A program made the translations under genes and the position numbers. Positions 10,676 to 61,790 of a stretch of DNA of 64,000 nt are shown here, piece after piece (within the stretch, counting starts at the first letter, position 1; each line of letters opens with the position of its first letter). The notes under the pieces were generated by a model that did not search any database, was not told where the DNA came from, and saw nothing but the letters and a program-made list of their open reading frames with translations. Source of the DNA: Octopus vulgaris (Eukaryota). The stretch lies in contig OX597817.1 in NCBI GenBank assembly GCA_951406725.2, positions 15,686,001-15,750,000 of the forward strand, read 5' to 3'.

Positions 10676-10689
10676 CCTACTAAGTCTGA

Positions 10690-11203
10690 TTTTCGCGTTT
10701 TATCATTTGCAATTTTTACAGCATAACAATTTCGCAATATCGAAATAAACTAATACTTTCATGTGTCACGTAGTCATCAAGTTTATGTAGTGACAGTCGT
10801 GTTCCACATTTGACAGTAGTCAATTGTGGAACATGACTGTCACGACATAAACCTGATGATTGCGTGACACATGAAAGTATTAGTTTATGTCAAGATTGTA
10901 AAGCCAATTGTGGAACATGACTGTCACGACATAAACCTGATGATTGCGTGACACTTGAAAGTATTAGTTTATGTCAAGATTGTAAAGCCAATTGTGGAAC
11001 ATGACTGTCACGACATAAACCTGATGATTGCGTGACACTTGAAAGTATTAGTTTATGTCAAGATTGTAAAGCCAATTGTGGAACATGACTGTCACGACAT
11101 AAACCTGATGACTGCGTGACGCATGAAAGTATTAGTTAATTTCAATATTGTAAAATATTTAAATTGTTAAATTGTAAAAATTGCTAATGATAAAACGGGA
11201 ATT
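10690..11203 (+). repeat. 84-bp tandem array (units at 10821, 10905, 10989, 11073) plus one inverted upstream unit; each unit holds a minimal hammerhead motif
   Basis: Unit: GACATAAAC-CTGATGA-ttgcgtgacacat-GAAA-gtat-TA-GTTTATGTC. Outer inverted ends CGTTTTATCATTTGCAATTTTTACA / TGTAAAAATTGCTAATGATAAAACG. Confidence 0.85.
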
Positions 11204-11295
11204 TCATTGATAAATATATTCTTCTAAACATATAATAAATATATTAATCAATTTCATTGATTAATATATTCTGCTAAACACAGTCATACAAACTT

Positions 11296-11429
11296 TTTGC
11301 TAACCAACCACATGGATCCGGGTTCAGTCCCACTGCGTGGCATCTTGGGCAAGTGTCTTCTACTATAGCCCCGGGCCGACCAATGCCTTGTGAGTGGATT
11401 TGGTAGACGGAAACTGAAAGAGGCCTGTC

Positions 11430-11512
<83 letters not shown>

Positions 11513-11704
11513 TGTGTCTGTGTTTGCCTCCCTAGCATTGCTTGACAACCGATGCAGGTGTGTTTATGTCCCCGTCACTTAGCGGTTCAGCAAAAGAGAC
11601 AGATAGAATAAGTACTGGGCTTACAAAGAATAAGTCCCGGGGTCGAGTTGCTCGACTAAAGGCGGTGCTCCAGCATGGCCGCAGTCAAATGACTGAAACA
11701 AGTA

Positions 11705-11707
<3 letters not shown>
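11296..11707 (+). mobile_element. SINE family A, 5'-truncated
   Basis: Identity to 2078-2490. Confidence 0.9.
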
Positions 11708-11775
<68 letters not shown>

Positions 11776-11779
11776 GTAC

Positions 11780-13290: not shown

Positions 13291-13904
13291 TGTTGGCTTT
13301 ATCCTAGAGGGTGGTGGGCTAAAGTATGAGAAAGTGGAGCCAGAGGAGATTTTTGTTGTAGAGGACACATGGTTTTTTTTATATTTAGAAGAGAGTGTGA
13401 GAATGATCAGTTGGAGGTGCAATGAGATAAATAGTGGCGATAAGGTGTCCAGGTGGCCCTTCAAAGTACGATGTGAGTAAAAGGAAGTGGGAACAAAGGA
13501 ACTAGGAGCAAGAGTAGGTGGAAGTTTGGTAGAACAAGAGACAGAGTACAGGGGATGGGAGGTAGGCAACAACTGTAAAGGTTGGGTAAGATTGAAGGGT
13601 AGACGTAGGGAGTGATGAACCTATGGATAGAAATGGCTTGGTCTGGCCAATGATGCATGAGTCAAGGAGAGTAGAGAGATGCAGGAGAGAGCAGTGGTGA
13701 GTAAGCAACAGGAGAGTAATTATGGTATAGTTGACAGAGGGAGGACAAGAGAGAGATGACATATGGTTGGGTTGGCTGTAGGAATAGGGTTGGGAAGAGC
13801 AAGTGTTTGGTGTCTCAATGATCACCCTCAGATTCGGTTGTTATTTGCCTCATAAAATTTTATACTTCACTAATTTTTCAGAATTAGATTCGCTTCATTG
13901 AGAT

Positions 13905-14550
13905 CTCTTTTACTTGTTTCAGTCATTTGACTGCGGCCATGCTGGAGCACCGCCTTTTAGTCGTGCAAATCGACCCCGGGACTTATTCTTTGTAAGCCCA
14001 GTACTTATTCTATCGGTCTCTTTTGCTGAACCACTCAGTGATGGGGACGTAAACACACCAGCATCGGTTGTCAAGCAATGCTAGGGGGACAAACACACAC
14101 ATAAACACACACACATACACATATATACACATATATACATACATATATATATATATATACATATATACGACAGGCTTCTTTCAGTTTCCGTCTACCAAAT
14201 CCACTCACAAGGCATTGGTCGGCCCGGGGCTATAGCAGAAGACACTTGCTCAAGATGCCACGCAGTGGGACTGAACCCGGAACCATGTGGTTGGTTAGCA
14301 AGCTACTTACCACACAGCCACTCCTGCGCCTATATATATCTTTACTCTTTACTTGTTTCAGTCATTTGACTGCGGCCATGCTGGAGCACCGCCTTTAGTC
14401 GAGCAAATCGACCCCGGGACTTATTCTTTGTAAGCCCAGTACTTATTCTATCGGTCTCTTTTGCCGAACCGCTAAGTGACGGGGACGTAAACACACCAGC
14501 ATCGGTTGTCAAGCAATGCCAGGGGGACAGATGCACAGACACACACAGAT

Positions 14551-14598
<48 letters not shown>

Positions 14599-14762
14599 GA
14601 CGGGCTTCTTTCAGTTTCCGTCTACCAAATCCACTCACAAGGCTTTGGTCGGCCCGAGGCTATAGCAGAAGACACTTGCCCAAGGTGCCACACAGTGGGA
14701 CTGAACCCGGAACCATGTGGTTTGTAAACAAGCTACTTACCACACAGCCACTCCTGCGCCTA
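13905..14762 (-). mobile_element. Two tandem copies of SINE family A (13905-14332, 14341-14762)
   Basis: Reverse complement of 2078-2490, twice. Confidence 0.9.
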
Positions 14763-15431
14763 TATATATCTGTATATTATTATTATTATTTTTTTTTATT
14801 ACGATATAGATGTTTAAAGATGGCACCAGATATTACTCTTATTCCAGTTTTGTCACTTTTTGTCTCATTACATTTTTGTACAGCATCAATTCTGGCGTGG
14901 TTTCCAGAATTAGCTTCTTTTTATCGAGATCTTTCATTTAAGCTTAATTAATAAAACTTATTAAAGAAAGAAGAAAACTATACCATTTAGAAATTGAATC
15001 AAGTCATTATTCATCGATTTCTAAACACTTTTGTGCTGGGCTACTTTCTTTTTATACCCAGTCTTTCTCTCAACACATAAGCTTAACATTTGTAGATGGA
15101 AGGAAAGAATATTTGTGGAGAGAGACTTCTAGAAGAAAGTAACTCAGAAAGAAATATCAGCAACATGTTTAATATACAGGGTCTCTGATAGGAACTATAA
15201 TTGGAGTTGTGAGTAAAAAGGAGGTAGCTGCAACAAGTGGATATAATCAGTGGCAGATCTACCACAAAACTAAGGAAGCTTAAGCTTCAGGGTCCCTAAT
15301 CCCAGAGCAAATTTAGTGATTTCAAAGAATACAGTAACCTGGCAAACTGGTCCGTAACAATTGATAATGATTTCATACAAAACTGTTCAATGCAAGACAT
15401 ACATTTTTTTTTTTTCAAAATAAAAACTAGA

Positions 15432-15858
15432 TAGGCGCAGGAGTGGCTGTTTGGTAAGTAGCTTGCTAACCAACCACATGGTTCCGGGTTCAGTCCCACT
15501 GCGTGGCATCTTGGGCAAGTGTCTTCTGCTATAGCCCCGGGCCGACCAATGCCTTGTGAGTGGATTTGGTAGACGGAAACTGAAAGAAGCCTGTCGTATA
15601 TATGTATATATATATATAAGTGTGTGTGAATATGTTTGTGTGTCTGTGTTTGTTCCCCTAGCATTGCTTGACAACCGATGCTGGTGTGTTTACGTCCCCG
15701 TCACTTAGCGGTTCGGCAAAAGAGACCGATAGAATAAGTACTGGGCTTACAAAAGAATAAGTCCCGGGGTCGAGTTGCTCGATTAAAGGCGGTGCTCCAG
15801 CATGGCCGCAGTCAAATGACTGAAACAAGTAAAAGAGTAAAAGAGTAAAGAGTAAAGA
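15432..15858 (+). mobile_element. SINE family A inside the hAT element
   Basis: Identity to other copies. Confidence 0.9.
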
Positions 15859-20512: not shown

Positions 20513-21417
20513 AGAGAGATACAATGTATGGTTGGGAGGTTGTGAAAGTGTGGAGAGAGAGGAAGGTGGTGTAGTGCATGGGGAGAGTGAGAGATGTATA
20601 GTTGGGAAGGAGGAGAGTTAATTTGGTGGTTAAAGATGAGGGCACAATGTAAAATGTTGGTGGAGAGTATTAAAGATGAGGGATGTATATCAAGTGAAAT
20701 GGTTCCAGTTAATGAGAAAGATCAAAGATATCAAGGAAACGCTGCCGTTAGAGAAACTCATTTTGCTAGTCATTTCGTCCCTTGTTAACCCTTTGAATGG
20801 AGACAACTTGGGGAGACTGGAAAGAAATGAAGCACACATGATCCATCTGATGTGCAACAGAAAAACGTATATTGATTTGAGATACATGTAGTTGTATACT
20901 GACAGTTTAGAAAACAACACTTTTCAATTAATCTACCTCTAACTTCATTTTGCACCTTATACATGAATTAATATTATTATTATATCATTCATTAACGTTT
21001 TCCATCACATCTTGGCCTTTACATACTATCATCAGTTAATTCTAATTATTGCTTTTCCTTGTTGATTCTGTTTAGATTGATATGAGTCATATCAAAGTTC
21101 ATTATCTATTGTTGTTATTGACGTCACTGAAGGGTGATAGTATTTTATACTAACTGAAATTTTCTTAGATATAAATATTTCCTTATGATATTAATTATGA
21201 TAGTTCCTGTAAATATTTGTTAAAAAGATTTCCTTCTTTCATTTAGGCCAAATGATTCACTCAATCTTATAATTTTATTTGTAGTCACTTGTTTTATAAT
21301 ATATATATTGTGATTTTCAATGATAAGAATATGACACTATAAAGATATGACTTATTTTGAATTGTTTTCCTTGAATATCCTATCTTAATATAATTATATC
21401 TATTATTTATTTAACAG

Positions 21418-22344
21418 GGTCCTCAGACAAAATTAATAAATGACTTGAATATAACATTCACAACACCAAGCATCATTCAAAATTCTACAGAAATATCTTC
21501 AATTCAGGAAGACATTTTCTCTTTTAAAAAGGAACTTCCAAAGAATACTATGAACCTTTCCAATGAAATCTCAGTATTGACTGCATATTTCAATTTAGGA
21601 TCCTTTGCAAAAGGCAGTCATGGACTGCAGTTTACCCCAAATATCTATTACAAATGGATGTCTATATTTGGCAACTTGACTAACAATTTAATTGTTTATA
21701 CAGATGATAAAATTGCATACAAATATTTCCAAAAATTAAGGGAAAAGTTTCCTAAAGAGCGAACCAAAATATTTCTGATAAACAAGAAGGAATTGTGGTC
21801 ATTTCAGATAGAAAAAACTATTTCTCAAATATATAAACAGCCTGGTTATCCAAAGCATCTTCCCAACACTGTTGTGCCTGGATATTCTTGTGCCATGCAT
21901 GCAAAAATTGAACTTCTTAATCGAGTTATAAGAAAGAACTATTTTCATACTAAATACTTTATGTGGCTAGACATTGGAATATTCAGACATCACTCGGATA
22001 TTAAATTTAAAATGGTAATACCTAAAAGTTTTGATGATACTAAGGTTGCATACAGCAATGTAAATAAATTTAATCAGCAAGTAACCTATAAAGACATTAT
22101 TTATAATAATATGGTATGGTTAGCTGGTGGTTGCAATCTTGGTAAATATGATGTTTTGTATAAATTTACTCAAGAGTATTTGAACTTCGTTAACAATTCC
22201 TTGTCCATAAAACTAATAAGTACAGATCAACAGATCATATATGGAATGTATGTGGACAAACATAAACCAGAAACAAAGCTTCAAATTTATTATTCAGGTT
22301 GGTTTAAATTATCTGATCTAAGTTATACAGCAGGAAAGAACTGA
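21418..22344 (+). CDS. Large terminal exon encoding an HtrL/YibB-family (putative glycosyltransferase-like) domain
   Basis: Uninterrupted 308-codon frame after acceptor TTTATTTAACAG (phase 0). Motifs LTAYFNLG, NNLIVYTD, Y...MHAK, NYFHTKYFMWLDIG, LAGG, DQQI. AATAAA at ~22359 and ~22483. Family assignment from motif recall, not a database search. Confidence 0.75.
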   Translation, partial: GPQTKLINDLNITFTTPSIIQNSTEISSIQEDIFSFKKELPKNTMNLSNEISVLTAYFNLGSFAKGSHGLQFTPNIYYKWMSIFGNLTNNLIVYTDDKIAYKYFQKLREKFPKERTKIFLINKKELWSFQIEKTISQIYKQPGYPKHLPNTVVPGYSCAMHAKIELLNRVIRKNYFHTKYFMWLDIGIFRHHSDIKFKMVIPKSFDDTKVAYSNVNKFNQQVTYKDIIYNNMVWLAGGCNLGKYDVLYKFTQEYLNFVNNSLSIKLISTDQQIIYGMYVDKHKPETKLQIYYSGWFKLSDLSYTAGKN

Positions 22345-24823: not shown

Positions 24824-25195
24824 TGGTAAAAACGGTAAGATAACAAAAGAAAGAAAGAGACCTCCATATTATGTAAATAGAGGAAATTTATCTATAAAAT
24901 AATATGTTACAATTACTCAATAGTCAAGATAAAACTCTGAGTTTCAGATGCCGAAGTGGAAATCCACAACACCATCTCTTCGGTTACGTGTTTTACTATG
25001 AAATTTTAATCTTATTTTATATAACTAGCAGAATTATAACACACTAATTTCCCTTTATATAACGGTATTTTTTCATAGCGTTTTTTCAGATGGCCAGATA
25101 ACCGAAGAGACGGTGTTGTGGATTTCCACTTCGGCATCTGAAACTCAGAGTTTTATCTTGACTATTGAGTAATTGTACATATTATTTTATAGATA
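24820..25195. repeat. Tail-out inverted repeat (24889-24986 / 25099-25195) with hammerhead-like motif, between TA tracts
   Basis: ~97-bp near-perfect arms; agauaa-CCGAAGA-...-GAAA-cucagag-UU-uuaucu at 25096-25158. Confidence 0.75.
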
Positions 25196-25205
25196 TATAT
25201 AATAT

Positions 25206-25601: not shown

Positions 25602-25738
25602 TATATAAGAATTTTTGCGTAATAAGATAAAAACCAAGGCTGTATAGATTTTAGAGTATTTATAGATAGAAGGTCTATCTATAAATGCTCTAATATCTAT
25701 ACAGCCTTGGTTTTTTTATCTTATTACCCCAAAGAGTT

Positions 25739-25745
<7 letters not shown>
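25602..25745. repeat. Near-perfect AT-rich palindrome (~50-bp core stem, 3-nt loop AGG)
   Basis: AAAACCAAGGCTGTATAGATTTTAGAGTATTTATAGATAGA-AGG-TCTATCTATAAATGCTCTAATATCTATACAGCCTTGGTTTT. Confidence 0.9.
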
Positions 25746-25805
<60 letters not shown>

Positions 25806-26754: not shown

Positions 26755-28980
26755 AACACACAAAATAGTACATAAATACAAATATATATATATACATACA
26801 ACATACGAATACTTACATATACGTACGTAAACACACATATATATGCACGTATGCTCACGACCAGTTTAAATTGCCCGTCTAAATCCTTCATGCGATATGG
26901 TAAAAAATACCACTGCAGTGAATTTAATGACGAAGTAAATATATATCTTTTCATGGGGATAAGCTAGACATCCTCTTACCGACACCCTTTATGAGGTTCA
27001 AAAAGCTTTAGGCAAATGGTACGAGGTTGTGTTGATATACCGCATCCTTTCATTGGGTAGGTTCTGTATGAGCCAGTGCCCAAATTGAATGTTATCTCTT
27101 CAGAAATTTATTGTGGTAAGGCTAGTCTTAATGGTAGGATGCCCTCTGGATCTAGTTTGGAGTGTTATCTCTAATGAAAGAGAGGTACAGTAAATCTAGG
27201 CTCAGTATGAGTAAGAAACTGGTTTGTGAGAATTTGTACTGGCAATGGTTGCAACGAATACCTGTTAGTAAGGACAGGGACATGGCTGGAAGGCAGCACC
27301 CTTCCTCTTAGGACTAATGTATCCTTCCTTTTTAAAATGGTAGAGCATAGTGTGAGGAAGATTTGGCTGTTATTTCTAGCAAATTGAACAACCACATAGA
27401 GATTATCTCATTGGCTCATTTGCTGATGTGTATAAGTAAACAAAAACGAAACGAAATGGATCTTCATCTATTTCTAGGATGATCATTCCAGTTGTATGAT
27501 CAACCGAACTGGTTACACATTCAACCGGTACTTTTTTGACCAACCTTGAAAGGATGAATGGCAAAGTCAGCCAAGGTGGGATTTGAACTCAGAATGTAAA
27601 GCATTTTGTCCAGTGTGCTACTGATTCTGTCAGCTTGTAGTCTTATGGTTACACATTATATTAACATATAACTGGCTGAGTATACCACAGAACACATGTA
27701 CCCACAACGTAATCCATATGTAGAATCAGCGCAACCCAGTGTGACATGGCTAGGCCTTTTAATTACAGGTCCAGAATCTAATTATAGTGTAATTTGGCTG
27801 AGTATTCCGTAGATATATATGGCTTTAATGTAATTCTGGGACAGAATCAGTGTGACACATGAAGGACATACCCAGAGTTTCAACTAAATGCTTCTCAACT
27901 ATTAAGAAAAATACACCATTCGCTGAATAAATTGTGGAAAATCACAACAAAATTAAACTAAATATCAGATGAATAATTCTATTGACAGGGAGCTAGTTTC
28001 TTCATTCCCCCTTATTGGTTACATATTTAGTGTGAGACTAGGTTAGCTCTTTAAATTAATTGTACTTCATCTGGCAGTATTTCACACAGTTTCTATTTAA
28101 CCAGTTTTACTCCCAATGCTTTGGCCACCTGACAGAATAACTATTAAGTCACTCACATATTAGACATGCTAGCCAGAAACACATAGCCTCCCGGTCCAGG
28201 TATCGAAACCACGAATCTTATGATGATGATGCTGACGCCCTAACCACTAAGCCACGCGCCTCAACTTAAAATATAATACCTAGTTTAAATACTTTATATC
28301 TTAGAAAACTCATGACACCTTCTAAATACCCAGCGCCGCTCATTGCCATTCTATAGACTTGCTAAGCTTAATGGTTAAAAAAAACCCAAGCGTAAACACT
28401 CGTTTCTGAAAGGGAAAGAAGAGTTGCCACTCGTACGATTCCAGCTATGATCCATCATGAGTTTATAAAGCGATATTTTTAGTTGCTGCCCTTATGATAG
28501 AAAATTTATTTTAGAAACATGGTCTTCCCCTTTTCGAAGGAGAGAATAAAAAAAACCCTCCGCAGCTGACCGCCTTCGATCGCGGCTGGCAATACATACA
28601 TAAATATATAATTTAAATGTCTTCGTCTATATCTAGCATGTTGACCGTCCACTTTTAGTGGTCAATCCTTTAAATTTTGTACATAAATATATACATACAC
28701 ATGTGCATGAATGTCTGTTTTTGCTTACATTTGTACTACTCTGAAAATCCCTGAGCTACAAGTGGTGATGTTGTTATTTCCCCTGTTAATAAATCATCCA
28801 CTAGCTTTTTGCTGGAAGACATGTGAAGCAAAAGCCCCCTTACTTCATGTACAGAGAAGGCTTAGTGCCAGGAAGGGTATCCAGTTGCAAAACAATGCCG
28901 GAATAATAAAATTGTCTAATTTTCCATAGTAGCATGGAAAAATGGAGGTGCAAATGAAGAAGTAAACAAATAAATGCATA

Positions 28981-29153
28981 TAGGCACAGGAGTGGCTGTG
29001 TGGTAAGTAGCTTGCTAACCAACCACATGGTTCCGGGTTCAGTCCCACTGCGTGGCATCTTGGGCAAGTGTCTTCTGCTATAGCCCCGGGCCGACCAATG
29101 CCTTGTGAGTGGATTTGGTAGACGGAAACTGAAAGAAGCCTGTCGTATATATG

Positions 29154-29186
<33 letters not shown>

Positions 29187-29399
29187 TTGTGTGTCTGTGT
29201 TTGTCCCCCTAGCATTGCTTGACAACCGATGCTGGTGTGTTTGCGTCCCCGTCACTTAGCGGTTCGGCAAAAGAGACCGATAGAATAAGTACTGGGCTTA
29301 CAGAAAAGAATAAGTCCCGGGGTCGATTTGCTCGACTAAAGGCGGTGCTCCAGCATGGCCGCAGTCAAAATGCCTGAAACAAGTAAAAGAGTAAAAGAG
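28981..29399 (+). mobile_element. SINE family A
   Basis: Identity to other copies. Confidence 0.9.
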
Positions 29400-30055
29400 A
29401 TACACTCACATCACACACACACACACACACACACACGCACATACACAAATACACACGTTTCATATCTCCAAGAATTTCAATTTCCACTTCACTGTGTCGT
29501 TCCTCCATGCTAATGGCACTGAGATGTCCAATCCTTGCCTAAAACAGGTGGGAACAAAAGCAGTAAGAAAGGGATAGTGTGCGATCTTTACGTTTTCCTT
29601 CCACTTATCCTTCTGACTTCGAAATTCCGGTGGTGATTCCTAGTTAGAGTGGTTCTAGATTTCAGTTTCCTACATTTTGGGTTCAATTCTAGTCATTTTG
29701 AAAGTTGGTTTTAGCTGGTCTTTGTAACAATAGAAAGACATCCAATGATCTTTTGCTCGTGCTTCATTTACTGAAGAGAATTTTACATGCAAATCTTTCT
29801 TCTCTATTTTAACATTATCCTCACCACCGTAGCTGGTCTTTAATTCTGGTTGATTCTATGCTTTGACTGTTGGAATTGTTGGTCATGCACTCCTCTTATT
29901 TGATGTATAAGAAAGCATGGAACTTTTGTTGATGGAAATGCGCTGGCTTTCTATGTGTGTGTATGCGTGTGTGAGAGCGCGCGGATACAAGAATGTCTTA
30001 AAGTGAGTTTAGCTTTCCTTATTTTGACATCTCACAATAACTATAAACAAATACC

Positions 30056-36384: not shown

Positions 36385-37135
36385 TCGGGCTACAGAAAAT
36401 ATTCTGCTCAATGTCTTGGTGTAAAAGATGAGCCACAGCAAATATTCTGCTCAAATGCTCTGATGCAATACCAGACACTGGTTCTCATGGCATCAGATCT
36501 TAACTGATTGGAAGTGTTATCATGTACATTGTTTTGTCTTGTTGTTAAAGATGAGCCACAGCAAATATTCTGCTCAAATGCTCTGATGCAATACCAGACA
36601 CTGGTTCTCATGGCATCAGATCTTAACTGATTGGAAGTGTTATCATGTACATTGTTTTGTCTTGTTGTTAAAGATGAGCTACAGCAAATATTCTGCTCAA
36701 TACCACAGATTTGATTATCCGTTGTTTGACCTTAACCAGTTAAACATGTCCCTTAGTGGCTGACGATATGTGCATCTCTGATCACGAGCAGAAGTAGTGG
36801 GAGAGCATCATAGTCATGCGTTGAGAGGAATTCTTTGGGTTTTGAATAATTCACCACCGGAAACATGGGGGTTTCCTTCAACATCCTTAAACAACCCTTA
36901 TTCAGGGACCTATTGAACAGGATGGGCTACTCGAATTGAAGAAAATTCTAACTTGCAAGGCCATGCGATGTTTATTTTGATATAAATTTACCATGTCGCA
37001 TACATATGGTTGTGATGCATGTGCCTGGTGTACCCTTATCAGACAGGTAGTCATGATGGGTATATAGGGCTTCGTATATTTGTATCCTAGTGTCACTTTG
37101 ATGGCATGCGATACTTTCTCACTAAATAATAATAA
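36385..37135 (+). mobile_element. Non-coding ~550-bp retroposon with (AAT)n tail (family D), 5' part tandemly repeated with a 123-bp period
   Basis: Homologous to 46682-47240; CAAATATTCTGCTCAA recurs at 36439, 36562, 36685. Confidence 0.75.
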
Positions 37136-37805
37136 TGTGTCTCCGCTGTGCCGCATCTGCAATAGAGTGGATGAAACCATTGCCCATATCACAAACGAGT
37201 GCCCTAGACTTGCCCAAAACACAAAAAAGTTGTGGCGACACGACCAAGTGACGAAAGTGTTACATTGGGAACTGTGCGAAAAGTGGGGTCAAGAGAGAGG
37301 CAAGATGGGGCATGAGCACAAACCTCAGAGAGTGGAAGAGTTGGGTACGAGCAAAATCCTCTGGGATTTCCCAATCCAAACAGATCAGGTGCTAGAGCAT
37401 AACAGACCGGATCTAGAGGTGGTGGACAAGATGCACCACATATGCTATATAATTGATGTTGCATGCCCCTTTGATCCACGAATAGTCAAGAAGGAAGACG
37501 AAAAGAAAGATACTTATAAACCTCTTAAGTACGAAATAGCACGGCTATGGAAAATGAAGGTGAAGATAGTGCTAATTATTGTTGGGTCCTTGGGAACAGT
37601 ATCAGAAAGCATCAAGAGGAATATAGAGGAAATTGGAATAAAGTGCCCAGTAGAACTGTTACAAAAGGTTTGCCTCCTTGGCATGGCCAGAATAATCAGG
37701 AAATCTGAAAAGAACGAATAGCAAGAATAGCAAGGTACCGTAGGCTGCAGGTAGTAAGCTCGCTACGCATGCAAGACTCCAGGAGCTTCGATACAACCTG
37801 TGATA
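37136..37805 (+). mobile_element. R4/Dong-type LINE 3' end (CCHC knuckle + RLE)
   Basis: CRIC...ETIAHITNEC, RHD, ILWDF...NRPDL...IIDVACP...K..Y; same family as 61130-61780. Confidence 0.9.
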
Positions 37806-39979: not shown

Positions 39980-40320
39980 ACTAGTAAATAATATTAATAC
40001 TAACAATATGCTCTGGGTGCGGCATGAAACTGCATCCGGTTGTGGTGTCTCGACGTGGGAAGAATAGGGTTACCGTCAACCAGAACTACCTTCAGATCAC
40101 TGTGGGGCAAGGTGTAGTACCTGTAAGCCCTTCTCGAGACCTTGAAATACCAGGTTGACGTCTGTCTCACAGCCTTAGTTGAGAATGCCTCTAGAGAGAT
40201 TTTGCACCAATTTAGACATAATTTTTCCCACAATTTTGACATAATTTTTTGAAAATGGAAAATTATCAAATTAGACATTAGTGTGGGAAACATTGACGTG
40301 GAATCTAACAGAGAAAAGAA

Positions 40321-41347
40321 GGTAAATTTATAGTTCCACACCAGACTCGATTTCGGTACTAAATAATTTTTTCCCGCGTTTTTTTCTTTTTTGATTTTTT
40401 TTTTGTGTGCAAATGTCTTTGTTGGCCTCATAAGCTGTCGGAAATGCATTCTTTCCGCGGAAAACGGAGGGGGTGGGGTGGTGCGGAACTTCGGAAATTC
40501 TTCTTCCCGACCCCGTCTCCCGCATTTTTTTCTTTTATTCTTTTTTCGCTGCAAACGTCTAAATTGACCTCATACATTATGATTGAGCGGATTAGGAAAG
40601 GTCGCTTTGTTGCTCCTCTGACTGGTCAGAAGTGTGACAAAGCGACATTGCTTCCACTAATTCAAAAATACATCAAACCTGGCTCAGTTATCTATAGTAA
40701 TTATTAAGCGGCTTACAAAGATATACAAACATTCGGTTTGTATATCTTTGTAAGCATTACATGATAAACCACAAAGAAAATTTTGTTGATACCACATATG
40801 CACGCATACACGCAATGAACATCGAACGTTTATGGTGAGATTCGAAAGAATGAGTGAAAAGGTCAAGTATTCCTTCAAACTATCTACGCCAGTACCTGAC
40901 CAGGTATTTATTTATTTCTGCTACAGAAAACAACAACAGCAACAACAAAAATTGCTGCACCAATTTTTTTATTGAGGCAGCAAAATTATATACACCCTTC
41001 CCAGATCGCCAGTAAAGGATCGATTCCAGAACAAATCCAGAGACATAAGATATACAGGACTCCCCTAGGTTCCGTCCCATACCATCCCCTCCGTTTTCCA
41101 CAGACAAAATGCGTTTCCCACACATTATGATGTCAATTAAGAGGATTGGAACGAAAAACAAACGTAGGAGACGGGGTCGGAAAGGGGAATTTCCGAGGCT
41201 TCGCCCCACCTCACCCCTCCGTTTTCCTCGGTAAGAATGCATTTCCGACAGCTTACAAGGTCAACTAAGACGATTGCACCCCCCAAAACGTGAAAAAAGA
41301 ATGGTTTAGTACCCAAATCGAGTCTGGTGTGAAACTGTAAATTTACC
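40321..41347 (+). mobile_element. Merlin (IS1016/ISXO2-like) DNA transposon, internally deleted
   Basis: GG...CC termini, ~200-bp imperfect TIRs (GGTAAATTTA...CACACCAGACTCGATTT), 8-bp TSD GAAAAGAA; transposase remnants DKATLLPLIQKYIKPGSVIYS and KENFVD...NIERLW. Confidence 0.9.
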
Positions 41348-41365
41348 GAAAAGAATATTAATTGT

Positions 41366-41946
41366 GGTTGTATAAAGTCAACATAACGTGACAGTCTCGT
41401 AGAGGGCATTACACTACCACTATATAGCCCTTGGAAGCATCGACGCTTCCTGTCGGCTTTGACACATTTCCTGTGTCCTTATATTTGCAAAGGGGAGGCA
41501 AGCACCCCCACTAGCCAGGACTAGCAACCTGAAGACATGCATGTTTCTGGGTATTGCCCGTCGTCAGTCCGGGGTAGCGAGTCCCCGCTAGCGGTGATAC
41601 TTGCCAAGCCTTCGCAAATATATATATATTTACAGTGAAATCTATTCACTGGTCACCGTGATTAGAAATATTGAATTTCTAAATGTCTCAAAGAGACATG
41701 AGCGGTGGTGGAGCGATAGAGTGGTTGTATAAAGTCAACATAACGTGACAGTCCTGTAGAGGGAATTACACCACCGCTATATAGCCGTGTCAAAACCGAC
41801 AGGAAGCGTCGATGCTTCCTAGGGCTATGTAGCGGTGGTGTAATTCCCTCTACGGGACTGTCACGTTATGTTGACTTTATACAACCACTCTATCGCTCCA
41901 CCACCGCTCATGTCTCTTTGAGACATTTAGAAATTCAATATTCCTA
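41366..41946 (-). mobile_element. Retrozyme-like non-coding insert: 357-bp-period partial tandem + inverted segment, with hammerhead
   Basis: 12-bp TSD AATATTAATTGT (41354-41365 / 41947-41958); repeat at 41364 and 41721; 41787-41946 inverted. Confidence 0.8.
41528..41574 (-). ncRNA. Minimal type I hammerhead ribozyme motif
   Basis: ccccgga-CUGACGA-c ggg caaua ccc a-GAAA-caugcaug-UC^-uucagg; GUC site, palindromic stem III ACAUGCAUGU. Confidence 0.8.
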
Positions 41947-42060
41947 AATATTAATTGTTAAGCACCAAAAATTATCCAGATATTTAATTTGCAGCCTCAA
42001 TTACAATCGAGTCGAAGTTGAAGAAAAATTTCTTGAAAGAAAAGTAATACACTATACGTA

Positions 42061-48244: not shown

Positions 48245-49490
48245 ATTTTAGTTAGGGACGTGAAGGAAATCAGCAAAAAGATGAGCAACTAGAAGACCCC
48301 GGGACCAGATGGAGTTCAATGCTACTGGATCAAAAGATTTGGTGAATGTCATGCACGAATAGATGCGAAACTCAACACCCTGTTAAATGCCGACCAAAGT
48401 AGATGACATTGGGTAGGACAGTGCTATACTTGAAAAACATCGAAAAAGGCAATACGGTAGACAATTACAGGCCGATATCCTGTCTGCCACTTATGTGGAA
48501 ATTATTGACTGGAATACTTGCAGAGTCAACGTACGAACATCTGGAAAAAAATGGAGTCCTGCCACATGCGCAGAAGGGTTGCAAGCGTAAGTGCAGAGAT
48601 ACCAAGGATCAACTCCTGATAGACAAAACTGTATCTAGAGACTGCAAGAGGAGGAAAACTAACTTAGCCATGTCATGGATCGACTATCGTAAGGCTTACG
48701 ATATGATCCCACACCCTTGGATAATGGAATGTATGAACCTATTTGGTATTGCATCGAATGTTGATCGATTGCTTGGAAATAGTATGGCGAACTGGAGGTC
48801 GGACCTAACAGTCAAAATTAAACGGACAGAATAAGATTGAAGCTTTCAACACCTGGGCTGTTTCACTCCTTAGATATGGAGCATGAGTAATGGACAGTAG
48901 ACGAACTAAACAGCTTAGACAGAAAGACAAGGAAGTTGCTAACTAGATATGGGACACTCCACCCAAAAAGTGACACAGGCAGACTATTACGCACCAAGGA
49001 AAAAAGGGGGAAGAAGACTTATTAGATGCGAACACAGCATTAAAACAAAAGAAAACAACATAGCATGGTATGTAAAAAATGCCACAGAACTGCTAATAGA
49101 AGTAGGAAGATCAGGCTTCTGTAGGATGAAATATAGCAAAGATAAAGCACTATACAAGACATTGAAAACGAATGAAACTGAAAATATATGGGTAGAGAAA
49201 GGAATGCATGGACAATTTCATAGGGATGTTGAAGATAAGACAGACAGAGAAAAAAGATGGCTGTGGATGACGAAAAGTGATTTAAAACCGGAAACGGAGG
49301 CTCTAATCTATGTTGCCCAAGAGCAAGCACTAAAAACAAACTACAAAAAATACTGAGTAGACAACACATCAGAAAGTGATAAGTGAAGCATCTGTGGACA
49401 AAATGGTAGAACCGTATGGCATATTACCAGCTAATGTACGCCACTAGCCCAGAAGGAATATAAGAGAGGCCACGACAATATTGCACGGAC
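48245..49490 (+). mobile_element. R4/Dong-type LINE RT fragments with internal deletions
   Basis: [17 protein letters not shown]...QKGC...TKDQLLID...[13 protein letters not shown]; MHGQF...LKPETE...AQEQAL. Confidence 0.88.
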
Positions 49491-52668: not shown

Positions 52669-53958
52669 GGATCTTTTCAAATTTGTGGCCAGGACCCCAG
52701 ATCTTTCTAGTTAACTAAATAATTTGAAACTTTGTGTACTCATAGAGTGGAACTAGTTTATTCACCAGTTGGAACTAGTTTATTTGAGAAAAATCTATTT
52801 TATGACTTTAATCGTAGATTAAAACTGCGAATTTTAACCAATGAGATTGCTTGTTTTCATATCTAAAACGTTACTGCGATCTGTTAGTGTGACGTTGAAA
52901 GCAGACGAGGGAAGTTTGTCTTTGAAGTTACCGTCTAGGGGAAGCATTGATGTACATGTGTGTGTGTGTTTGATGGGGTGTGGGAGACAGTATGTTGTGT
53001 AAGTGAAGTGCTTCTGTTAGTGTGTGTGAAGAGACAGAGAGAGTAATGTGTGAAAGAGAGAGATAACTGAAATTTTTTACTCGGTGTATGTGTATATGTA
53101 TGTCTGCATGTATGTGTGTGTGTGTATGTATCTATGTATGTATGGCCATACATACATACACACACACATACATACACACACACATACTTACACATACATA
53201 CACACACACATACATGCAGGCATACATATACACATACACCGAGTAAAAAATTTCAGTTATCTCTCTCTTTCACACATTACTCTCTCTGTCTCTTCACACA
53301 CACTAACAGAAGCACTTCACTTACACAACATACTGTCTCCCACACCCCATCAAACACACACACACACACATGTACATCAATGCTTCCCCTAGACGGTAAC
53401 TTCAAAGACAAACTTCCCTCGTCATAAAATCGCTTCCTCTTAGTCTCTTTCGCTTTCATTACTTATGTAAAAAAATAAAAGTTTTTTACGGAAATCGACG
53501 GAAAACTTGTGCTACGACAAGCGAAACTTCGCCTAAATTTCTTGCCACTTCTTAATAGCAAACGAAAGCAAGTACTAACAGAATGGAAACATTTTCAATT
53601 TAATACATGTGGCTTATTAACTAGTTTTAAATATTGTTATTAGAAGGTGGCTGACTATAGGATCCTGGAAACATGAGTACGTTAAATAATTAAGATGCGC
53701 TTGTTTACATTTAAGATGTTTAATACGTCACGAAATTGGTGGTCGAGACGGAGTAAATAAAATAAAGCCGAATGACGGAATATCATTGGTTAAAATTCTA
53801 ATTATTAAACAACGTTAAACTTAGAAGTTACAATTCCGTTTTCATTCTGGTTTACAATTAAGTTTACTTTTGACACATTCTACCAGTATACGAAGTTTCA
53901 AATTGTTTGGTTCAGTAGGAAAAATTTGAAAAAACTGGCTTCAGAATAGAAAAGATCC
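52669..53958. mobile_element. Non-autonomous TIR element with GG..CC ends and 8-bp TSD (Merlin- or Mutator-like)
   Basis: CATTATTT|GGATCTTTTC ... GAAAAGATCC|CATTATTT; longer imperfect subterminal inverted repeats. Confidence 0.85.
52904..53423. repeat. 520-bp near-perfect palindrome nested in the TIR element
   Basis: GACGAGGGAAGTTTGTCTTTGAAGTTACCGTCTAGGGG... mirrors ...CCCCTAGACGGTAACTTCAAAGACAAACTTCCCTCGTC; centre near TATGGCCATA (53141-53150). Confidence 0.93.
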
Positions 53959-54173: not shown

Positions 54174-54721
54174 AACAACAAACAAGATGAGGACAAATAT
54201 CCGTCAAATATAAATAATGTAAATAATGAAAATATATTCAATCGAAAATAAATAAGTAGAATAGAATAACAGAACACTTGACTCTTTACTACTCAAAGTA
54301 CGTATTGTCTGAATTCTAACAAAAGGGAAAGCATTTACTTCAAGAAATGTGTAGAAACATAAAAACGATAAGAAGTACGTTTGAATGACTAGCCTTCGGC
54401 GCCATAATTCTGTTAGACCTTCAACGGCCGGAGGAAGTTCAAAAGGTCAGCTCATCCTCATTAATCTGTAAGTTCTGATAGAACAAAACAAAATACTTTT
54501 TGTGCGACTAAAAATTCTTCAAGGCGGTACCCCAGCATGGCTGCAGTCTAATAACTGCAAAAAGTAAAAATAAAAAAAGAATTCGGATGTAGTTTCTTTT
54601 TTTCATTTGCAAAATGAGCCCCTATTAATTTTGCTCAGATTGCTTTCAATTTTGGTGTATCGATGCAACTCCGAATTTTGGTTACGATCAACGAATTACT
54701 TTATCGCGTAAATTAAAGAAT

Positions 54722-54923
54722 CTCTTTTACTTGTTTCAGTCATTTTGACTGCGGCCATGGTGGAGCACCGCCTTTAGTCGAGCAACTCGACCCCGGGACT
54801 TATTCTTTGTAAGCCCAGTGCTTATTCTATCGGTCTCTTTTGCCGAACCGCTAAGTGACGGGGACGTAAACACACCAGCATCGGTTGTCAAGCAATGTTG
54901 GGGGGACAAACACAGACACACAA

Positions 54924-54966
<43 letters not shown>

Positions 54967-55118
54967 CGACGGGCTTCTTTCGGTTTCCGTCTACCAAATC
55001 CACTCACAAGGCATTGGTCGGCCCGGAGCTATAGCAGAAGACACTTGCCCAAGATGCCACGCAGTGGGACTGAACCCGGAACCATGTGGTTGGTTAGCAA
55101 GCTACTTACCACACAGCC
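54722..55118 (-). mobile_element. SINE family A
   Basis: Identity to other copies. Confidence 0.9.
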
Positions 55119-55949
55119 AATCTGATGTTATTTAGAATTAAAGTTGGAAAATTTGGGTAATTTCAGCCAATCAACAGACAGTAAGGAATTAACAGCTTGT
55201 TACCATGACAAACGGGCGTTGTGTTGTGTTTCACTTCATCTGCATGTTTTGCCGATTCTTCACATCACGAGATTTACTTCACCCGCGTTTTGTTTTTATA
55301 AAAACTCATATTTATCAATTAGAATTTTATTGCAGATGTTTTTCGTCAAATGTCTTAATATTTTACATATTTTTCATATATAGCAAAAGTTGTTTGCGAT
55401 GTTTATGAAGGTGAATGGAATATGAGAACTTAGGGTTCACGTGTGAGTGTGTGTGTGTGCTGTTTGCTTAGACGCAGCAAATGAATTGAGCTCAAATACT
55501 GGGATTTCATTGGTTAAAATTCGAAGAATTAAACTACGTTGAACTTACAAATTACAATTTTGTTTTCAATTTTGTTTACAATAATGTTTTCTTTTGACAC
55601 ATTCTACCAGTATACGAAGTTTCAAATTGTTTAGTTAACTAGAAAATTCCGTCCATCAAAAAGAAAAGATCCGAACTTAGTACACAACCGCACACGTACG
55701 CTACAAGCACAGTACTGACAAAAAATCGGTGTCATCGAACCAGTATTGCCAAGCCTCAGGAACTTATTGACTCAGATAGCTGCATTTATGATTTCACTAG
55801 GTTAATTCTATTCATAAACATTTAAATTAAGAGTATTTCTTAAACCGTTAGCTTCACATTTCAACAGCTTAACTGAAATTTAGCTCATGTGACAGGTGTA
55901 CATAATACTCAAATACACATAAAGTAACACATGCAGACATGATACAGCG

Positions 55950-58900
55950 TATCATAGCAGTAGCAGGTAAGCTCTCCAGATATTAGAAAAGAATAGATCA
56001 GTATCAACAGAATAGATTATTTGAGACAGACTAGAGGAGATTTTATAACCAAATAAGTAGTGAAGAACGAAGTACTGAAGATGAGAAACCTAAAGCAGAT
56101 GAAGCTAGAAAGTTCTGGAGTAATATTTGAGATAAACCAGTCAATCATAATGAAGATGCAGAATGGATAAAGAAAGTGAAGTAAGAAGTAGTGAGTGAGA
56201 AGCAGCCAGATCTAAAATTAACTAGTGCATTAATGAGTAAAGTATTAGGGAAAATGCCGAATTGGAAGGGCCCAGGATCAGATTTAGTTCAATGGTACTG
56301 GCTAAAGAAATTCAGTAGATTACATGGAAGGCTGAGGGAACAACTTCAGGATTGCCTTAATGGAGAAATAATACCAGTTTGGATGACTAGATGGAGTACA
56401 ATACCCATTATGAAGGATTAGAACAAGGGTAATATAGCCAGCAACTATAGACCAATCACTTGCTTACCATAAGTGTGGAAGCTGTTAACAGGAATGCGTT
56501 CAGAAAGCATTTACGAGTACTTTGACAACCAAAAGTTACTACCAGATGAACAGAAAGGTTTCAGGGAGAAGGCTAAAGGAAGGGATGGTCTTTTATATAT
56601 AAACAAAGCATTTCTAAATGAAGTAAAAGCTAGAAAGAAAAATCTAACAATATCATGGACAGATTATAGTAAGGTCTATGACATGATCCCACTCTCATGG
56701 ATAAGTGAATGTTTGAGTACATTCAGTATAGCAGACAACATAAAAGAATTAATTAGCTTTAGCATGAAGAAATGTAAAGTAGATCTCTACTCAAATGACA
56801 CACACTTAGGAAAAGTTAATATCAAACGAGGAATTTTCCAGGTACTCGTTGTCCCCTTTAATAGCTGCCCCTTTTAATATTTGTCTCCTTTAATACCCCT
56901 CAGTTTAGTATTAAGGATGGCAAAGGCAGGGTATCAGTTCAGAAATAGCAATGAAAAATTTAATCATTTGCTCTACATGGATGATCTGAAGTCTTAGTAA
57001 GAATGAAAAAGAGATAGATTCCTTAATACAGACTATAAGACTCTTCAGCAAAGATATAGGCATGGAATTTGGCATATGTAAATGTGCAATATTAGTCACG
57101 AGAAGGGGACAGGTGGTCAACAGTGAAGGCATCCAATTGCCAGAGAGCCAGACATTAAAATCATTGAAAGGAAGAGAGAGTTATGAGCAATTAAAGTTAT
57201 GAGTATCTTAGAATCTGACAGTGTACTAACTACAGAAATGAAAACGAAAATTGAGGAGTACATCAGAAGGGTGAGGAAGCTAATGAAGTCAAAGCCAAAT
57301 GGTCCGAATCTAGTGAAGGCTGTAAATACTTGGGCATTATCATTACTTAGATACTCTGCAGCTTTTGTAGATTGGACAAAAACTAAATTAGCAAAGCTAG
57401 ACAGAAGAGCTAGGAAGGAATTCAATATGAATGGAGGAGAAGGAGAAGCAAGATTATACCTACCTAGAAAAAAAGGCGAAAGAGGGTTAATATCAGCAGA
57501 AGAGTGCGTGTAGTTATGTAGAGAGAATATAGACTCCTATGTAGGTAATACTGAAGAAAATCTGCTACAGTCACAGGAAGACACAGGGAAACCAAAACAC
57601 CAAGCGAACTTAAAAACCAGAAAACGAACGGAAATTATCTGACTGGCAGGAGAAGGCGTTGCATGGTGGATTCCCAAAGATAGTTTCAGCAAACAGTAGT
57701 ACTGAGACATGGTTATGGCTACAGAAAGGAAAGCTGAAAAGGGAGGCAGACAGTTTGTTAGTAGCTGCATAAGATCAAGCATTAAGGACTAATTGGATAA
57801 AAGTCAAAATAGGTGCAGGAGTGGCTGTGTGGTAAGTAGCTTGCTAACCAACCACATGGTTCCGGGTTCAGTCCCACTGCGTGGCATCTTGGGCAAGTGT
57901 CTTCTTCTATAGCCCCGGGCCGACCAATGCCTTGTGAGTGGATTTGGTAGACGGAAACTGAAGGAAGCCTGTCGTATATATGTATGTATATATATATATA
58001 TATATATGTGCATGTGTGTGTGTTCGTGTGTCTGTGTTTGTCCCCCTAGCATTGCTTGACAACCGATGCTGGTGTGTTTACGTCCCCATCATTTAGCGGT
58101 TCGGCAAAAAAGAGACCGATAGAATAAGTACTGGGCTTACAAAGAATAAGTCCCAGGGTCGAATTGCTCGACTAAAGGCGGTGCTCCAGCATGGCCGCAG
58201 TCAAATGACTGAAACAAGTAAAAGAGTAAAAGAGTATAGACAAAAACCAAGTAGATTCCCAATGTAGATTATGCAAATCAAAAGAGGAAAACGTTGTTCA
58301 TATAGTAAGTGCAAAATAATTGACTTTTCAGTTCCAAATGATGAAATAGTCAACATAGAAAAAATAGAAAAAGTACCAGGATCTAGCCATTAAATTCCAG
58401 ACTATGAAAAGTGCGGGTAAAATGTATTCCAGTATTTATAGGTCCATTAGGAGCTATCCCTAGATATTTGAACTGGTGAACAGAGAAAAGAAGCATAAAA
58501 TTCAGTTTAGTACAGCTCCAGAAAACAATGTTATTAAGGACAGCTAGGATACTTGGGAGTAATAATAACTACAGACAGTACATGGATTTACCAAAGAAAT
58601 AAACATGAAATTTGGCTTAGAAAAATGTGTCAAAGCAACCCTGAAAAGAGGAAAACTAATTAAGAGTAGTAACATCACTAGATAAAGCAAATGAAATAAG
58701 AGAATTAGACAAAGCCAGACATAAAAATAATTAGGAACCAATGAACTAGATACGATGCAACACACAAATGAAAGAGAAGATAAGAAAAGAATACTATAGA
58801 CGAGTCAGATTAATACTGAAAACAGAGGTCAATGCGAAGAACAAGAGAGTAGGAATCAACATTTTAGCCGTCGCAGTTATTAGTTGTAGATTATAATATT

Positions 58901-60390: not shown

Positions 60391-61790
60391 TCCTACAATT
60401 GTTACGAGACGAGGAAATCTTTTGAGAATAGAAGGAATATGGTTGCTAAGTGGTGAAAGGATGAAGGTAATTCAACCTCAATCCAGCTATAAATACCTGG
60501 GAATACTTGAGGCAGATGGAATTAAACACAATCACATGAAGGAAATGACAAAAGAAGAGTACCTGCGGCGAGTGAGAAAAATATTGACTTCAAAGCTGAA
60601 TGCCAGAAATATAATTTTGACAATAAACACGCGCGCAGTCGCAGTAGTTCGATATGGCGCTGGAATCCCGAAGTGGACAGAGGAGGAACTAAAGGAGATG
60701 GACAGAAAGTCACGACGCTCCTAACGATGCATGAAGCCCATCATCCACGTGAAGACACTGATCGCCTATACATGAAGAGAGCAAATTAAGGAAGCGGATA
60801 AGTGTGGAAGACTGCTTGCGTATCGAACTCGATATGAGATACCTAGCCCAAAGTAAGGAATTCTTGCTATTGACAGTTAGGAACGAAGGAGTATTGGAAG
60901 CTGAGAAAAGGAGAAAACAAAGGGATAAGTGCAAAAAGGACATGAAGAAGAATGACGCAAGAAGAGACTATACAATCAATTCCATGTAGCCACAACAGAA
61001 GTTACTGGAAAAGTAGGTAGAATTGGCTGATGAGAGGAATGCTAGAAAAAAAGTGAGAGAGAGCACTATGCTGGCAGTGCAGAACCAAGATTTGACGAAC
61101 TGGCGGGTCAATTTTAGGAATTTGAAAGTGTCTCCGTTGTGCCGCATCTGCAATAGAGTGGATGAAACCATTGCCCATGTCACGAAAGAGTGCCCTAGAC
61201 TTCCCCGAAACCACTGCAAGTTATGGCGACACGACCAGGTAGCGAAAGTGCTACATTGGAAACTGTGCGAAAAGTGGGGTCTAGAGAGAGAGGCAAGACG
61301 GGGTATCAGTACAATCCACAGAGAGTGGTGGAGTCGGGTGGAGTCGGAGACTTGCAAAATCCAAACAGATCAGGTACTAGAGCATAACAGACCGGCCCTA
61401 GTGGTAGTGGACAAGATGCACCACGTATGCTATATAATTGATGTTGCAGGCCCCTTTGACTCACGAATAGTCAAGAAGGAAGGCGAAAATCTAGATAAAT
61501 ACAACCGTCTTAAGTACGAAATAGCTCGACTATGGAAAACGAAGAAGGTGAAGATGGTGCCAATTATTGTTGGGTCCTTGGGATCAATATTCTAAGGGGA
61601 ATACAAAGGAAATTGGAATAAAGTGCCCAGTAGATCTATTACAAAGGGTTTGCCTCCTTGGCACGGCCAGAATAATCAGGAAAGTATTAGATAGCTGAAA
61701 AGAATGGATAGCATGATACCGTAGGCTGCAGGTAGCAAGCCTGCTACGAGTGTGAGGCTCCAGGAGCTCCAACATAACCTATGATAAAGA
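60391..61790 (+). mobile_element. R4/Dong-type LINE 3' half
   Basis: YKYLGILE...EYLRRVRKIL...INTRAV.VVRYG; CRIC...RHD...IIDVAGP; followed by a (TAA)n array. Confidence 0.9.

Follow-up and report, generated by a model that had tools for sequence, protein, structure and literature searches.

Structure of the insertion at 41354–41958

The window (the whole 64-kb stretch of DNA that was analysed) looks like repeat-rich animal DNA, judging by its long microsatellites, its decayed fragments of non-LTR RT and its scarcity of long ORFs; no tRNA gene was found in it. At 41354–41365 and 41947–41958 it carries the only two occurrences of a 12-bp direct repeat, AATATTAATTGT, which enclose 581 non-coding bp in three segments: a full unit of 357 bp, a 66-bp portion of another unit and a 160-bp piece in inverted orientation. 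Direct- and inverted-repeat comparisons reproduced the layout described in an earlier note on this DNA, namely a 12-bp duplication around 581 bp without an ORF, a 357-bp monomer accompanied by an inverted 160-bp segment and a near-perfect duplex of about 125 bp, and the coordinates hold.

The full unit (41364–41720, minus strand; GC 46.5%) ends, in the sense of its hammerhead motif, at 41364–41366, a point referred to below as the inner end or site B. Its longest frame, as judged by six-frame reading round the unit junction, has 57 codons from stop to stop and 40 from an ATG. A 5′-truncated second unit of 66 bp (41721–41786, minus strand) forms a partial tandem with it, the direct repeat 41364/41721 having a period of 357 and 92% identity. 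This second unit is joined head to head to an inverted and likewise 5′-truncated copy of 160 bp (41787–41946, plus strand), which comprises unit positions 300–357 and 1–102 and additionally matches 41364–41465. No microhomology is visible at the joint, 41786/41787. In hammerhead sense, the insert starts with the truncated copy that is inverted, whose 3′ end points outward, and continues through the truncated direct copy to the full unit.

The inverted end extends 58–60 bp beyond the direct end. The extension corresponds to a stretch of the full unit (41661–41720, minus strand) that reaches from site B′ (41721) to a terminus recurring in the family, site A (41661–41663), and that contains two short hairpins; it is taken as the equivalent of the tail of Penelope-like elements (PLEs) and makes up the outer 58 bp of the inverted copy. 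Together, the direct and inverted copies form a hairpin (41662–41947) with arms of 125 nt (41662–41786 and 41823–41947), 3 mismatches and a 36-nt loop consisting of unit sequence that is missing from the direct arm. Neither the left nor the right end of the insert carries a poly(A) or short-repeat tail, and no second family copy was found by BLAST within the 64-kb window.

Several other repeats were noted in the window. A dispersed repeat of ~400 bp is present in about ten copies with 85–94% identity, including 2077–2500, 11297–11777, 13903–14774, 15418–15851, 28968–29458, 54720–55122 and 57809–58242, and another, of 385 bp, in four copies (16063, 34597, 35662 and 39593) with 97% identity. Decayed non-LTR retrotransposon pieces (RVT_1, zf-RVT) lie at 37068–37721, 48403–48834, 56473–56877 and 61017–61595; none of these four gave a PLE endonuclease match. 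Palindromic inserts with arms of 42–188 nt were seen at 20–236, 24886–25198, 25602–25746 and 52904–53423. The CTGANGA..GAAA core is absent from all four, which could be other fold-back insertions or MITEs. A 309-codon open frame (21415–22344, plus strand) matches Pfam HtrL_YibB (E 9e-14); its nearest Atlas clusters are mostly viral, which is not in itself a sign of transfer.

The hammerhead motif and its degree of conservation

The unit carries a type I hammerhead motif on the minus strand (41528–41574), with core letters CUGACGA (41567–41561), GAAA (41547–41544) and UC (41535–41534) and a cut predicted from the sequence at 41534/41533. Helix III, of 2–3 bp, is contained in the perfect palindrome ACATGCATGT. 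Helix I has 6 bp including one G·U and, at pair 4, one C·A, and helix II has three G-C pairs above a basal C·A, at a place where hammerheads usually have a G-C pair. The motif is held in a long rod that extends helix I (41470–41635, minus strand; -76.7 kcal/mol, z -7.6, none of 200 shuffles as stable). In the folding model, which leaves tertiary contacts out of account, the free ensemble is predicted to be more stable than the catalytic fold by 7.4 kcal/mol.

At 41571 on the plus strand, most contigs of the family (described below) have A where the insert has G, and an A would give U-A in helix I. Since most family contigs would thus pair at helix I pair 4, the hammerhead of the insert has drifted. 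The basal C·A of helix II may instead be a family trait, both of its positions lying outside the best 40 of 318 difference rows. The motif had been called intact in the earlier note; this is true of the core letters and of the palindromic stem III, and not of helix I with its C·A mismatch nor of the predicted energy of the fold. Nor can the element be called complete, as had been proposed: the insert holds only one hammerhead, with a broken helix I pair, and because there is only one, this copy would not by itself release a monomer.

The layout of canonical metazoan type I hammerheads given in PMC4209133 agrees with the motif found here. A descriptor, written after the motif had been seen, gave one match in the window and none in 50 Markov simulations of it. 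Rfam returned no hammerhead match in three of three scans and nothing at gathering score in the window; near the insert there were only weak miRNA and rRNA hairpin matches, with E up to 10. Pattern scans of metagenomes for the hammerhead gave 0 matches, and in a literature motif search the 14-letter hammerhead motif occurred in no paper's main text. Three viral contigs that fit a relaxed hammerhead pattern were set aside as chance matches; BLAST of the insert gave a single 33-nt match, with E 0.27.

A second insert of PLE style was observed at 10687–11206, where four 84-bp tandem units (10818–11153) are preceded by a head-to-head inverted copy. Each unit has a CTGATGA..GAAA minimal hammerhead-like motif on the plus strand, and a 9-bp helix I is possible in the first three. 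This insert has no clear TSD, and in folding predictions the hammerhead is not the minimum.

The target site in a dispersed host repeat

Contigs of four of the 24 listed runs (X2, X4, X9 and X11) were aligned to 41000–42050 at 80% likeness. In three of them, many contigs start their alignment at 41947 with a loose left end (56 in X2, 59 in X4 and 42 in X9). The consensus of these loose ends before 41947 terminates in CAGAGAAAAG, and in our own comparison 27 of its 30 letters equal window positions 40289–40318. The right flank of the insert is itself a dispersed repeat: its right part (41959–42038, plus strand) is delimited by loose contig ends at 41947 and 42038, and its left part ends at ~40318. 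In the paralogous copies of this host repeat, the 12-mer is present once, right after GAAAAG, and the same six letters precede the left TSD. Because these paralogous empty sites carry the 12-mer once, the target-site duplication is real; no orthologous empty allele was seen.

The length of the TSD is 10–12 bp, since the GT at 41364–41365 fits both target and element. When it is read as 10 bp, both insertion junctions follow ATT; this trinucleotide takes up 5% of the positions in the flanks, and one of the two ATT matches requires the 10-bp reading, which makes the ATT context weak evidence. Among the displayed contig rows, none spans the three junctions of the 41354–41958 locus itself.

The same host repeat is interrupted by a TIR element (40321–41347) with an 8-bp duplication. 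The element is non-autonomous-looking and ends in GGTAAATTT and AAATTTACC; its duplication, GAAAAGAA, at 40313–40320 and 41348–41355, overlaps the left TSD by 2 bp. We take its GG termini and 8-bp TSD to recall Merlin.

A high-copy family with a recurring terminus

Contigs aligned on 41000–42050 numbered 4164, 3890, 1954 and 412 in the four runs, with a summed depth by far highest over the element, and the 357-bp unit is a member of a high-copy family. Summed contig depth itself (up to 7e5, compared with ~55 per contig in X2) was not accepted as a copy number. Run X11 is only guessed to be RNA, so that its 412 aligned contigs are no evidence either way on expression. Contig pieces at unit positions 62–288, 269–34 and 316–91 close the 357-bp period, and because such pieces tile it as a whole, the period is a property of the family. 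Sites A and B are both crossed in tandem register by contigs, which come from different runs; an array with two hammerheads did not appear among them.

The analysis of ends and joints covers the best-supported rows: for loose ends the best 24 of 1017, for joints 15 of 54, for between-letter positions 12 of 26 and for contig pieces 32 of 10565, so that other end points may be hidden. Within these rows a single pile of ends is visible, at a recurring terminus (41661) where 22 X4 contigs stop with long and mixed flanks (median 255 nt, agreement 0.48) and where single pieces in X2 and X9 likewise begin. The right end of the insert (41946–41947) mirrors this terminus, at 41662–41663. The free circular permutation of start points that the earlier note had led one to expect is therefore not supported as it was stated. 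No pile of ends at site B was found among the best 24 of 1017 loose-end rows, and site B is defined by this one copy. A drop in depth near 41503 was ruled out as a truncation profile, since a diverged subfamily stops aligning there.

Inside the insert, 17 distinct joints were displayed: nine inversions at different breakpoints, seven same-sense joints and one, 41788–41456, set aside as ambiguous. Each is carried by one or two contigs with short sides (24–58 nt where given) at 80% likeness, and three share 41484, a position at which the diverged subfamily stops aligning. Two of the joints in run X4, 41526–41596 and 41526–41622, skip or replace the whole hammerhead (69–95 bp), which hints at the existence of ribozyme-less family derivatives.

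These family data bear on two explanations that do not involve a PLE. The hairpin could have arisen by fold-back during assembly, or by a DNA rearrangement that came later and had nothing to do with the insertion. Long inverted repeats are hard to assemble (PMC8557442), and the displayed contigs leave the junctions of this locus unspanned. Nevertheless, the inverted piece adjoins the right TSD and stops at the family terminus, its arms differ at 3 sites, the 36-nt loop has no counterpart in the direct arm and inversions are found in other family copies, all of which make such an artefact or rearrangement most improbable.

Alternatively, a LINE (RTE, L1 or similar) might have copied the RNA, the inversion being produced by twin priming. 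Target-primed reverse transcription is expected to generate a TSD of such length at an AT-rich site together with a 5′ inversion, and both are present here; fragments of non-LTR RT and zf-RVT also occur in the window. In twin priming, the internal start site varies; the inverted piece, by contrast, has the recurring family terminus as its outer end. The absence of a poly(A) or short-repeat tail from both ends speaks against a LINE as well, and inverted pLTRs with a tail are described as unseen in non-LTR target-primed reverse transcription (PMC8557442). We therefore regard mobilisation by a LINE as very unlikely.

Comparison with PLEs and retrozymes

PLE insertions consist of a partial tandem with an adjacent inverted 5′-truncated copy and a 30–40-bp tail at one end (PMC8557442), and inverted pLTRs with 8–10-bp TSDs as well as trans-mobilisation by pLTRs alone have been reported (PMC3846280). 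A PLE protein has been shown to cut and extend both strands with a preference for ATT; reverse transcription begins at two positions within the RNA, which mark the limits of the tail, and hammerhead cleavage is dispensable for activity in vitro (PMC11167929). The order hammerhead, site B, tail, site A in the insert is the same as in the PLE of that study. More generally, the insert shares with EN+ PLE insertions (Penelope/Poseidon, Neptune, Naiad; PMC8557442, PMC3846280, PMC11167929) the partial tandem, the head-to-head inverted 5′-truncated copy, the tail at one end, a short AT-rich TSD and a hammerhead upstream of two end points. In contrast to these elements it has no RT or GIY-YIG ORF, and so is not an autonomous PLE; its tail is 58–60 bp instead of 30–40, and its hammerhead is of canonical instead of minimal size.

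A layout equal to that of autonomous PLE insertions could also be left by the heavily 5′-truncated stump of such a PLE, its pLTR having been duplicated in the donor, in which case there would be no separate non-autonomous family. Two contigs would be in line with this: beyond the 5′ (sense) end of their unit sequence they continue for 441 and 549 letters that do not align. However, what comes upstream of the hammerhead is the unit's own 3′ end and not the end of an ORF, and no frame exceeds 57 codons, whereas the anole PLE has an ORF that continues from the hammerhead through both start sites (PMC11167929). The tandem register in which contigs of different runs cross sites A and B also disagrees with a stump, an origin that we consider quite unlikely.

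With metazoan non-LTR retrozymes (Cervera and de la Pena 2020, PMC7229834; Li, Clavereau and Pollet 2026) the insert shares a non-coding unit of 150–450 bp with GC below 50%, a canonical-size type I hammerhead with a short palindromic helix III, a TSD longer than 4 bp, high copy number and dispersed solo copies. A published rule counts a retrozyme as 'active' when two or more units follow one another and every one of them carries a hammerhead (bioRxiv 10.64898/2026.07.22.740005); the insert, a monomer, falls outside it. The inverted piece, the tail and the fixed ends are absent from the available descriptions of non-LTR retrozymes (PMC7229834, bioRxiv 10.64898/2026.07.22.740005), and in the latter, the portion of main text consulted contains neither 'tail' nor 'junction' nor inverted copies. 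In the literature searched, which excluded subscription papers and Repbase, no inverted-plus-tail insertions were found described for a retrozyme family; supplements may list this family or such layouts.

Chlamys MRC1 and the pLTR-only mobilisation in Adineta vaga (PMC8557442, PMC3846280) are further parallels in being non-coding, moved by PLEs in trans and forming pLTRs and head-to-tail copies. Such elements share sequence with a known autonomous family; for the insert, no such partner was found among the window ORFs scanned. Plant LTR retrozymes are likewise non-autonomous, hammerhead-bearing and TSD-flanked, but their hammerheads are of type III and they carry PBS/PPT, a pair of LTRs and a TSD of 4 bp (PMC5680766), as opposed to the single type I motif and 10–12-bp TSD of the insert.

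A connection between the two groups has been drawn before. PLEs have been named as likely partners or ancestors of retrozymes (PMC8969392, PMC5680766, PMC7761336), non-autonomous PLEs such as MRC1 are already known (PMC8557442), and a phylogenetic link between retrozymes and pLTRs has been presented together with the argument that animal retrozymes are non-autonomous PLE derivatives (bioRxiv 10.64898/2026.07.22.740005).

A proposed model for insertion by PLE enzymes in trans

On the best reading, the locus holds a solo member of the high-copy family of 357-bp non-coding hammerhead repeats, a non-LTR retrozyme for which a PLE is the likely source of RT and endonuclease in trans. A TSD, a partial tandem, an inverted copy attached head to head, the 58–60-bp one-sided extension, the recurring terminus and the recurring inversions are all observed, and together they make up a PLE footprint. 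Two features differ from published PLEs and count against this reading: the tail is longer than 30–40 bp, and site A is not AC-rich, unlike published PLE start sites. A likeness of site B (AUACAACCAC) to the AC-rich start site of the anole PLE, judged by eye and hand count, was discarded as too short to count. No GIY-YIG match that would point to an autonomous partner was found among the 27 window ORFs scanned (83 listed).

In the mechanism that we propose, an endonuclease would nick both strands of the AT-rich target 10–12 bp apart, each just 3′ of ATT. The top-strand end would prime cDNA at RNA site B and run 423 nt into the next unit, passing an uncut or religated hammerhead site, while the bottom-strand end would prime at site A, 58–60 nt further 3′ on the RNA, and run 160 nt. 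Joining of the two truncated cDNAs at 41786/41787, followed by fill-in, would then give the hairpin and the TSD, the 125-bp hairpin being a by-product of two-strand priming. The template exceeded one unit in length; of its two possible forms, a circle and an uncut multimer, we lean towards the multimer.

The earlier note had invoked a circular or multimeric RNA and a 5′ strand switch. What is upheld is a retrozyme-like retro-insertion that is flanked by a genuine TSD and whose template, which may or may not have been circular, exceeded one unit. A one-off switch is not supported, because the inverted piece ends at the recurring terminus and because inversions recur in the family, as they do in PLE insertions.

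In the standard retrozyme model, a monomeric circular RNA would be reverse transcribed in rolling-circle fashion from an arbitrary start, the enzyme happening to switch strands close to the 5′ end. Consistent with this, the insert is longer than a single unit and runs across the predicted cut site, the contigs of the family cover the whole 357-bp period, and metazoan retrozymes form abundant circles, for which such a route has been proposed (PMC7229834, PMC7761336). An arbitrary start is at odds with the terminus at 41661, and repeats copied off one circle should start identical. Instead, private changes number 5 in 102 nt of the first unit and 4 in 285 nt of the hairpin arms, a difference that is no more than suggestive (Fisher p = 0.058, or 0.097 when confined to the 66 nt in common) and that conversion between the arms could also explain. 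We consider the rolling-circle route quite unlikely. Without being decisive, the contrast in private changes would favour either a multimer template of mixed units or such conversion. The fixed ends argue against random permutation and not against a circle as such: if a circle were copied from the fixed start sites of a PLE, this would be distinct from the rolling-circle model and compatible with insertion by PLE enzymes.

A broader proposal is offered tentatively, as possible but rather doubtful: animal retrozymes might spread without circles, PLE enzymes copying uncut multimer RNA from two fixed sites that flank a double-hairpin tail and priming on both nicked strands.

Implications

The enzyme and the template that move animal retrozymes have so far been argued from shared ribozymes, co-occurrence and phylogeny, and a 2020 review states that retrozyme repeats show no motif indicating their partner (PMC7761336). 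Insertion anatomy is independent evidence on the mobilising enzyme, and the 357-bp family has a PLE footprint. No sign of a host function was seen for the single insertion. If circle-free spread by PLE enzymes were true, neither the hammerhead nor the circular RNA would be needed for spread through the genome, and a long perfect hairpin, from which double-stranded RNA silencing could be fed, would arise at many insertions. The family would then be a high-copy natural record of PLE footprints, with a tail longer than the published 30–40 bp.
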